The notes below the pieces were generated by a model. That model was not told the DNA's origin. It worked only from the letters and a program-made list of their open reading frames with translations, and did not search any database. 64,000 nucleotides of DNA from Acidobacteriota bacterium (lineage in GTDB: Bacteria; Acidobacteriota; UBA890; WLXD01): positions 2,592,001-2,656,000 of the forward strand of contig CBDBHB010000009.1 of the NCBI GenBank assembly GCA_965205505.1. Direction: 5' to 3'. The position numbers and the translations under genes were made by a program. Below, one piece after another: positions 1-50,764 of the stretch. Position 1 is the first letter of the stretch. Every line of letters begins with the position of its first letter.

Positions 1-636
1 CTGCGGCTGCGCGCCGAGGTTCAGCAGCCGAGCTCGCGACTCAATGTGGTGTTCATGGGGCAGGGCGAGCCTCTCGACAACGCCGCCGCCGTATTCGCAG
101 CCGTCGATGCCATGCAAGACCCCAACGGACTGTCGTTGGGCTGGCGTCGCATAACCGTCTCGACCGTGGGGCTGGTTCCCGCCATTCTCGCGCTCGCCAA
201 GCTGGGGGCGCGGCGCCCACGAATCGCGGTCTCGCTGAACGCGTCGACTGACGACGTGCGTTCTGATCTCATGCCGGTGAATCGCAAGTACCCCATTGCC
301 GCGCTGATCGGCGCGCTGCGGGAAGTGCGCTGGCGCAATCGCGAGAAGCTGACCTGCGAATATGTGCTGCTCAGCGGTGTCAACGACACCGACGCCGACG
401 CCCGACGTCTCGGCGGCCTGCTCGGAAGCCTGCCGGCGAAGGTGAACTTGATTCCGTGGAATCCGATCCCAGGAATGGCCTATCAGCGGCCGTCACCGGA
501 GCGCGTCGAGCAGTTTCGCCGCGTGGCACGGAACAGTGGCCTGGATGTGCTGGTTCGCTACAGTCGCGGGGCCGACATCGGAGCTGCGTGCGGGCAGCTA
601 GCGACCGCCGCCGCGGGCTCTGGGCCGGGGCGCTAG
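1..636 (+). CDS. rlmN: 23S rRNA m2A2503 radical-SAM methyltransferase RlmN (5' truncated by window edge)
   Basis: Frame open from base 1; NVVFMGQGEP, RITVSTVG, SLNA, EYVLL.GVND, KVNLIPWN, RGADIGAACGQL motifs. Confidence 0.93.
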   Translation: MRLRAEVQQPSSRLNVVFMGQGEPLDNAAAVFAAVDAMQDPNGLSLGWRRITVSTVGLVPAILALAKLGARRPRIAVSLNASTDDVRSDLMPVNRKYPIAALIGALREVRWRNREKLTCEYVLLSGVNDTDADARRLGGLLGSLPAKVNLIPWNPIPGMAYQRPSPERVEQFRRVARNSGLDVLVRYSRGADIGAACGQLATAAAGSGPGR

Positions 637-911
637 CAGGCCGTGGTGAAAGTGTGGCGGGCCTGGCGACAGGGTCTTGCGGGGCGCAGGCAAGGAGAGA
701 GGAGGAGGCGATGGTTACCCGATCGTTGACGACGAACGACGTAGCATACGTGCGCAACCCCCTGTCGCCCGAAGGGTTACGGCGATTTGGGGCCATGTGC
801 GGCGTTGGCCTTCCTCGATGATGGTTAAGGCATCGCCAGCGTCAGGCCGCCTTGCATCTGGCCCCAACTCGCCGTAACCAGGCCCGCCACACTTCCACCA
901 CGGCCTGCTAG
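633..911. mobile_element. Non-autonomous CTAG-bounded palindromic element (MITE/REP-like), copy A
   Basis: 34-bp terminal inverted repeat CTAGCAGGCCGTGGTG(A/G)AAGTGTGGCGGGCCTGG with 1 mismatch; two internal hairpin modules; related sequence at 19636-19896. Confidence 0.8.
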
Positions 912-19195: not shown

Positions 19196-19660
19196 ATGGC
19201 TAAGAAGATCAAGGCCGTAATCGGGCTCGTAAAGCTGCAGATCCCTGCCGGTAAGGCGACGCCGGCGCCGCCTGTCGGCCCGGCGCTCGGCCAGCACGGC
19301 GTCAACATCATGGACTTCTGCAACGCGTTCAACTCCGCTACCAAAGATCAGCCGGGGATGATCATTCCGGTTGTGCTCACCGTCTACAACGATCGCACGT
19401 ACTCGTTCATCACCAAGACGCCGCCGGCCGCAGTCTTGCTGAAGAAGGCCGCCAACATCGCGTCCGGATCGGGGGAGCCGAACAAGGACATCGTGGCGAC
19501 CGTGACACGCGAGCAGGTAGAGGAGATCGCGAAACTCAAGATGCCCGACCTCAATGCGTTCGATGTCGACGCCGCGGTGAAGATCATCGCCGGAACGGCG
19601 CGCTCGATGGGCATTGAAATAGCTGGTCTCGAGGCCGAGCAGGCCGTGGTGAAAGTGTGA
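19196..19660 (+). CDS. rplK: 50S ribosomal protein L11
   Basis: [29 protein letters not shown]. Confidence 0.99.
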
Positions 19661-19896
19661 TGGGCGTAACCCTTCGGGCAAGTGGGAGTTACGGGCGAAT
19701 GGCGTCGTCGTTCCTCCTCGACGATGGCTCCAGCATCGCCTCGTCGTCGATCCTTGCCCGCGCCCGTAAGTCCCACTTGCCAGACCCACCACACTTTCAC
19801 CACGGCCTGCTAGGGCATCGCCTGTGTCAGGCCGCCTTGCATCTGGCCCCAACTCGCCGTAACCAGACCCACCACTCTTTCCCCACGGCCTGCTAG
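19636..19896. mobile_element. CTAG-family palindromic element, copy B (one-module unit 19636-19813 plus extra right half 19814-19896)
   Basis: Same terminal repeat as copy A; two right ends CACGGCCTGCTAG at 19801-19813 and 19884-19896. Confidence 0.8.
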
Positions 19897-50374: not shown

Positions 50375-50481
50375 CTAGTAGAGTTCTTCAGCAACCTGCT
50401 AGTGGCCTGGCCGTGGGGCCCGGCCAACAGGCCCTCACTCCGTTCGCGCCAGCAAGAGGCCCGCCGTAGGAGACCACGCCG

Positions 50482-50760
50482 CTAGTGTTCCTGATCATAA
50501 GTACGGTGACGTTTGTGGCGCGCGCGACCGGGGCGAATTGTAGGAGCGGCGACGAGGGCGATGCTGGGTGTATCGTCGAGGCGCCGCGACGCCCAAGGTG
50601 GCCGGTCCCGCGGCCACCCGGAGGGCAGGAGCGATATGCGGGCGAACTCGGCGTCAGGGCTCGTCGAGGATGGCTAAGGCATCGCCTTCCTCACCCTTCC
50701 TTGATCTCGCCCGCATCTCGCTCCTGCAAACGTCACCCACCGTACTTATGATCAGGAGCA

Positions 50761-50764
<4 letters not shown>
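50482..50764. mobile_element. CTAG-family palindromic element, copy C (different terminal repeat)
   Basis: 27-bp terminal inverted repeat CTAGTG(T/C)TCCTGATCATAAGTACGGTG; two inverted core modules as in copy A. Confidence 0.8.

Follow-up and report, generated by a model that had tools for sequence, protein, structure and literature searches.

ERIC has been known since 1990. Its means of transfer had not been worked out according to the available text of a 2007 account (PMC2759123). MITEEc1, which is ERIC, is placed under IS630 in ISfinder (PMC11602168), and the ends of the ERIC-like MITEPlu5 of Photorhabdus are reported to resemble those of IS630 (PMC6267812). An orientation-dependent effect of ERIC on mRNA stability has been reported (PMC2229807). 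The Geobacter metallireducens repeats Gmet_R1001-R1024 were described as predicted short RNAs, with no mobile origin given in the available part of the report (PMC2700814). MITEs derived from IS630 or from IS5/IS1182, of which RUP is the textbook case (PMC2229807), are non-coding, carry the ends of autonomous elements and occupy TA or CTAG sites. A module shared across phyla is not mentioned in the accessible portions of the reviews and surveys PMC10969869, PMC2759123, PMC2267715 and PMC3110155, and no paper on one module common to these repeats was found in the literature outside subscription journals and ISfinder.

The element described here lies at positions 633-911 of the window, the whole 64,000-nucleotide stretch of Acidobacteriota DNA that was analysed. 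Its TA ends and long, imperfectly paired hairpin are also found in ERIC/IRU/RU-1, where the basal loop is the same and lies on the same strand, and in both the apical hairpin begins with a G-T pair. It differs in length (279 bp versus 127 bp), in having two inverted modules rather than one together with a further 30-bp repeat, and in the distance from TA to loop (57-59 bases in these elements versus 27 in ERIC, a difference of ∼three DNA turns); the ERIC spacer is ∼10-12 bp longer and the apical sequence is different. The element is related to ERIC through a shared module but, because length, apex and architecture differ, it is not an ERIC. Gmet_R1001-R1024 resemble it by eye in their flanking words, apical hairpin and compensatory changes (PMC2700814, Figure S1), but are ∼113 bases long with a single module and a longer spacer. 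The features listed above for IS630- and IS5/IS1182-derived MITEs are all present, but here one internal module at constant spacing is common to ends from two transposase families. Like REP/REPIN sequences with RAYT, the family consists of multicopy intergenic palindromes in inverted pairs that are targeted by an IS110-family element. A REPIN/RAYT identity was nevertheless rejected: no Y1 gene was found in the richest genomes, the CTAG flanks appear to be duplicated and the ends are of DDE type. By kind the element is a MITE with DDE-type ends, and its conserved core links this MITE to ERIC.

The element at 633-911 and its family in the source genome

The element is bounded by CTAG on either side, followed inwards by a 30-bp terminal repeat and a hairpin module; the two modules are inverted relative to each other and separated by a GNA linker. 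The ends are complementary at 33 of 34 bases, CTAG counted. The left CTAG (633-636, + strand) is followed by the left terminal repeat of family T1 (637-666, +), hairpin module A (666-768, folding strand +, 63.1 bits) and the central linker (768-776, +), which has a 3-bp stem and a GAA loop of GNA type. Hairpin module B (776-878, folding strand -) scored 91.6 bits, or 61.2 bits with the long-class model, and is followed by the right T1 terminal repeat (878-907, -) and the right CTAG (908-911, -). The basal loop of module A is formed by 692-696 opposite 738-743, with the core at 707-730 inside; that of module B is formed by 849-853 opposite 801-806, with the core at 814-837 inside. The genes rlmN (ORF 46-636) and purE (ORF 908-1423) are convergent, and the stop codon of each is the TAG of one flanking CTAG, read on the - strand for purE.

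The original prediction placed five cores in the window, at 707-730 (-), 814-837, 19717-19740, 50557-50580 (-) and 50663-50686. All five were recovered at these positions and strands, with 0 matches in 100 shuffles. The third belongs to a shortened T1-ended copy in the gap between rplK and rplA (19640-19813, one module at 19678-19780, -), which is followed by the right-hand fragment of a second T1 copy with CTAG at its end (19814-19896). The TGA stop of rplK (19196-19660) falls within the left repeat of the shortened copy, so that the repeat encodes the final codons of rplK. The last two cores belong to a full T2-ended copy (50482-50764) with modules at 50516-50617 (+) and 50625-50727 (-). A short T4-type end remnant (50376-50402, -) lies after a tRNA terminator.

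No promoter- or terminator-like site was found in the element. A scan of the window with Rfam 15 returned tRNAs only, generic miRNA hairpin models lying far under threshold, and at 20 other loci no Rfam 15 family fell on the element, the sole match being an FMN riboswitch elsewhere. A match to a described repeat or Rfam family had been named beforehand as counter-evidence, and this applies in part: no Rfam family matches, but the module is related to ERIC and, by eye, to the Geobacter repeats.

The source genome (G000) contains 201 exact cores, compared with 0 for the reversed-pattern control. Full copies were searched for with six end motifs, and 108, each 267-275 bp long, were recovered in several end families, chimeras between families among them; in total the repeat occupies ∼346 loci, or 0.96% of the genome. 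CTAG is present on both flanks in 68 of the 108 full copies, and the inner flank bases are kept better than the outer, matching the prediction for a TA duplication. Mean pairwise divergence is 5.3% in T1, 1.7% in T2 and 2.8% in T3, T2 being the youngest end family. At the site orthologous to 633-911, G001 has neither element nor CTAG, whilst remnants are present in G003 and G004 (T1) and in G002 (T3 family); remnants of differing families at one site point to its repeated reuse. A cleanly matching empty allele was not found at the orthologous site, in DNA runs or among paralogues, and the length of the duplication is for this reason inferred. At least one core was found in each of 19 of 25 other genomes of the order (reversed control 0). 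Some single core matches in distant genomes fall in coding sequence and look like chance.

Predicted fold of the hairpin module

A 34-pair structure was defined from 39 arms, in which 91.3% of cells pair; RNAalifold agrees with it. Two-sided changes were observed at 29 of the 34 pairs, in keeping with the original prediction that the enclosing stems differ yet still pair. Covariation was also seen, the score being 0.593 versus 0.181 when shuffled (0/500) and 0.07-0.10 when slid, with the qualification that the 39 arms are related and these controls are accordingly not probabilities.

G-T wobbles outnumber A-C mismatches by 87 to 27, or by 55 to 27 when the one conserved wobble is left out, which marks the purine-rich strand as the strand keeping the fold. 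The core had been written on the opposite strand; the core is real, but by the wobble excess its strand is not the one that keeps the fold. The 'CCTT(G)' bases noted downstream of the core are likewise conserved, but are the reverse complement of the AAGG loop strand, which is itself conserved and faces ACGC. Covariation and wobble bias together support the proposal that a folded structure, with its core held constant, is under selection.

Two purine-rich internal loops are near-invariant. In each, a single G-C pair has opposed G/A or C/A bases on its flanks, which we take to be sheared pairs, and facing bases within the loops covary. Columns 66-114 are G-C in 39/39 arms, columns 65-115 (A/G), 67-113 (G/A) and 77-103 (G/A) are kept in 38/39, and column 68-112 alternates between C/A (26) and A/G (11). 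The linker loop is GNA in 97/108 copies of the source genome and purine-N-A in 40/46 copies elsewhere. C(GNA)G is described as an unusually stable DNA loop (PMC3201870).

Range across phyla, spacing classes and kinship with ERIC

The strict pattern was found at at least 121 loci, and Acidobacteriota, Actinomycetota, Lachnospiraceae with relatives, and Lujinxingia were among the matches listed. The module recurs in Actinomycetota, in Bacillota and, by eye, in Geobacter. Single-module forms are mostly 152-158 bp long with many different terminal stems. Viral contigs gave 0 matches to the strict full pattern and no match in an rplA search; the basal motif alone is unspecific, a flanking stem being present in 2 of 120 viral-contig matches.

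From a scan of metagenomes 123 loci were obtained, of which 12 were too close to a contig end to be scored; 99 of the 111 scorable loci had a flanking stem. With a maximum match length of 85 set by the pattern, the 111 matches were either 59-66 (n = 27) or 79-84 (n = 84) long, with none between. The arms measured 16-17/11 in the short class and mostly 25-28/19-24 in the long class, after 13 of 69 mis-anchored long-class rows had been set aside. The spacer of the long class is ∼21 bases longer in total, corresponding to ∼10.5 bp from loop to apex. The distance from end to loop, counted from the C of CTAG, was 57-60 in 78 of 122 modules. Long-class elements are sometimes asymmetric, with an IS5-type end ∼57 bases before the loop and another ∼27 bases after it (L493, L405, L507).

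When a model of the long class (R2) was built from 43 environmental loci without taxon names, which may include enterobacterial relatives, the 13 ERIC loci of E. coli K-12 (13/13) were its top 13 matches in 40 kb (best E 5e-9). When run over the entire E. coli chromosome, R2 gave four matches, all ERIC-type, and it scored window positions 775-879 at 61 bits. The short-class model (R1) scored ERIC weakly (best E 0.004) and gave 0 matches on the whole E. coli chromosome under strict filters. Of the 13 ERIC loci, 11 copies could be anchored, and with a profile trained without enterobacteria each of the 11 scored above 195 or more of 200 shuffles, the strand being the same in every case. Intermediates between the apex and spacer of the element at 633-911 and those of ERIC occur in the long class.

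A tentative extension, which we regard as possible and not as probable, is that bacterial TA-targeting MITEs of many phyla belong together with ERIC in a single superfamily, united by a folded-DNA module of ancient origin. Purine-rich loops at whole-turn spacing would recruit a host protein, through which so small an element could be excised or copied by the IS630- or IS5-type transposase that happens to supply its ends, and the module would serve as an end-swapping, portable transposition enhancer. The shared module, fixed loops and spacing classes would place separately named repeats of distant phyla in a common lineage. Should mobility across transposase families depend on internal structure, a classification of MITEs by their ends only misses the conserved unit. 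The fixed loops and spacing classes define exact mutations for testing mobility.

Ends, transposases and mobilisation

The first 21 bases of T1, CTAG included, are identical to an end of a 1.5-kb IS1182-like element in G011; the protein of this element had its best score to IS1182, although the score did not reach the cut-off. Agreement with IS5-type ends is up to 28/34 bases for T4, and T3b agrees at 26/34 with an IS630 right end from G007. The first 16 bases of T3c are the same as an end of the source genome's own IS630. Judged from these matches, two unrelated transposase families (IS630 and IS5/IS1182-type) apparently supply ends to one core. The original prediction set the repeat apart from simple MITE copying. 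The carrier proved to be a MITE with insertion-sequence ends; what stands of that claim is the conservation of the module across end families and phyla.

Modules were found by model search in 18 of 61 genomes of the phylum, G046 being included in the tallies as one module-negative row. IS630 was present in 10/18 module-positive versus 9/43 module-negative genomes (p = 0.014, kin not being independent), and Y1 showed no association in the same genomes (10/18 versus 28/43, p = 0.57). PF01797 (Y1/RAYT) had 0 matches in G000, G007, G011 and G012, the four module-richest genomes. No transposase was found among the 137 frames flanking 80 loci; one frame was a recombinase of the phage-integrase family. 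These results speak against the suggested REPIN-like substrate of an HUH transposase, and the envisaged transposase or RAYT gene flanked by the repeats was not among the frames.

The model search counted 66 modules in G007 (all scored) and 54 in G011. An apparent anti-correlation between module number and partner IS number came from the strict pattern and is not upheld by these counts. An autonomous element carrying the module was not seen; where a module adjoins IS630 in G007, the two are distinct elements that have one CTAG in common. G007, a 5.1-Mb genome, has at least 150 DUF772 and 43 IS630 matches, and at six loci in it (L357, L359, L362-L365) IS630 copies adjoin the terminal CTAG of T1-type elements. 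Insertion of IS630 at a terminal CTAG is a possible route for the swapping of ends.

The preferred reading, to which we give roughly even odds, is that the MITE at 633-911 is moved in trans by DDE transposases and that its paired modules fold as single-stranded DNA or a cruciform, aiding copying. DDE transposases supplied in trans would mobilise the element. The fold would form on one strand, so that an inverted pair would provide one working module per strand. A putative host or transposase-side protein would recognise the basal loop, located ∼27 or 57-59 bases from the TA, from a single face of the helix, and the folded modules would raise the chance of the element being copied. Conservation would be enforced when new copies are founded and not at each inserted site.

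A DNA-level role in mobilisation is favoured by the spacing classes, by the lack of an orientation bias and by the way the motif mutates in inserted copies. Among the 33 of 80 single-module loci with a Pfam-confirmed neighbour, two of them convergent, 13 copies were sense and 18 antisense to the neighbouring gene (p = 0.47). In 82 full copies, private mutations were found at 28/5412 motif positions (0.52%), compared with 0.67% in stems and 0.73% in terminal repeats, and these rates are not significantly different. Between families the motif is fixed and the stems vary freely, yet once inserted both mutate alike, as would be expected if selection acted while copies are being made. Counting against selection at founding, the private mutation rate of apical loops (1.41%) exceeds that of the motif (p = 0.002), a difference equally compatible with weak selection on each resident copy. 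Against mobilisation in trans, the partner IS of T1 was not found in G000 (it is present in G011), T2 had no partner in the search, and no DUF772 or DDE_3 match was obtained in G012 despite its 38 modules.

Several features set against a DNA reading lead to the alternative that the module works as RNA. A read-through transcript would fold and set mRNA processing or stability, making stop-codon insertions tolerable or useful; we think this unlikely. The G-T wobbles and the tandem G/A pairs are just as compatible with RNA, an added turn of 10.5-11 bp would suit B-DNA and A-form RNA alike, and the arms of ERIC are longer (28/23). In T1 and T2 the linker, when taken on its reverse strand, has the sequence of a UNCG RNA tetraloop. 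In 44 of the 108 full copies the TAG is the stop codon of an open frame of 150 codons or more, compared with 1430 of 5731 CTAG sites (25%), and one copy sits between rplK and rplA. ERIC is reported to alter mRNA stability in Yersinia (PMC2229807, PMC3184786), and the Geobacter copies were termed predicted short RNAs in the available text (PMC2700814). In the small share of two RNA runs that was kept as contigs, a related module occurred in a single 245-base contig (depth 5), which favours neither reading. Single-module copies however show no orientation bias, the motif is not spared private mutation relative to the stems, the Rfam and promoter/terminator results above were negative, and it is hard to see what an RNA would gain from a constant distance to the TA of insertion.

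In another alternative a non-DDE enzyme would recognise the module, gauge its distance along the stem and cleave at the TA, the IS ends being captured stem sequence only. The geometry is constant with many unrelated terminal stems in three phyla, abundant families occur without a matching transposase in their own genome, and IS630 on the terminal CTAG in G007 offers a route for end capture. We nonetheless rate this reading as distinctly improbable, since every end family that was traced leads back to a DDE element, Y1 was not found in the four richest genomes and the frames beside the 80 loci held no transposase, one of these frames being the phage-integrase-family recombinase. Very little weight is given to the conserved words being ordinary double-stranded binding sites for a nucleoid or repair protein, with pairing secondary. 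Spacing steps of about one helical turn are also expected of duplex sites on one face, and an IHF site is reported in Correia elements (PMC10969869), but the two-sided changes at 29/34 pairs, the one-strand wobble bias and the covarying facing loop bases stand against it. Least probable of all is a palindrome without function that perfects itself by template switching and gene conversion around a core inherited from one old element: end-family chimeras and 14 T1-repeat cells changed on both arms suit it, but template switching would erase mismatched loops, yet the loops are near-invariant from Acidobacteriota to Lachnospiraceae and E. coli while the adjoining stems are replaced.

Later events at inserted copies were also observed. 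At C9:1907520 in G000 the apical loop of a T3-type module contains a T1 element, and many one-ended remnants mark places where full elements have decayed. Collapsed footprints, with 17-45 bases between two CTAG words, occur at many sites in G000 and at L013 and L387. An element of ∼1.4 kb, named as IS110/IS1111-type from a reading of its protein, has 28 complete copies in G000. About 20 of the 28 lie at the terminal CTAG of T3-type ends (e.g. C9:497306 and C9:919465), a clustering which suggests that the repeat is its preferred target.
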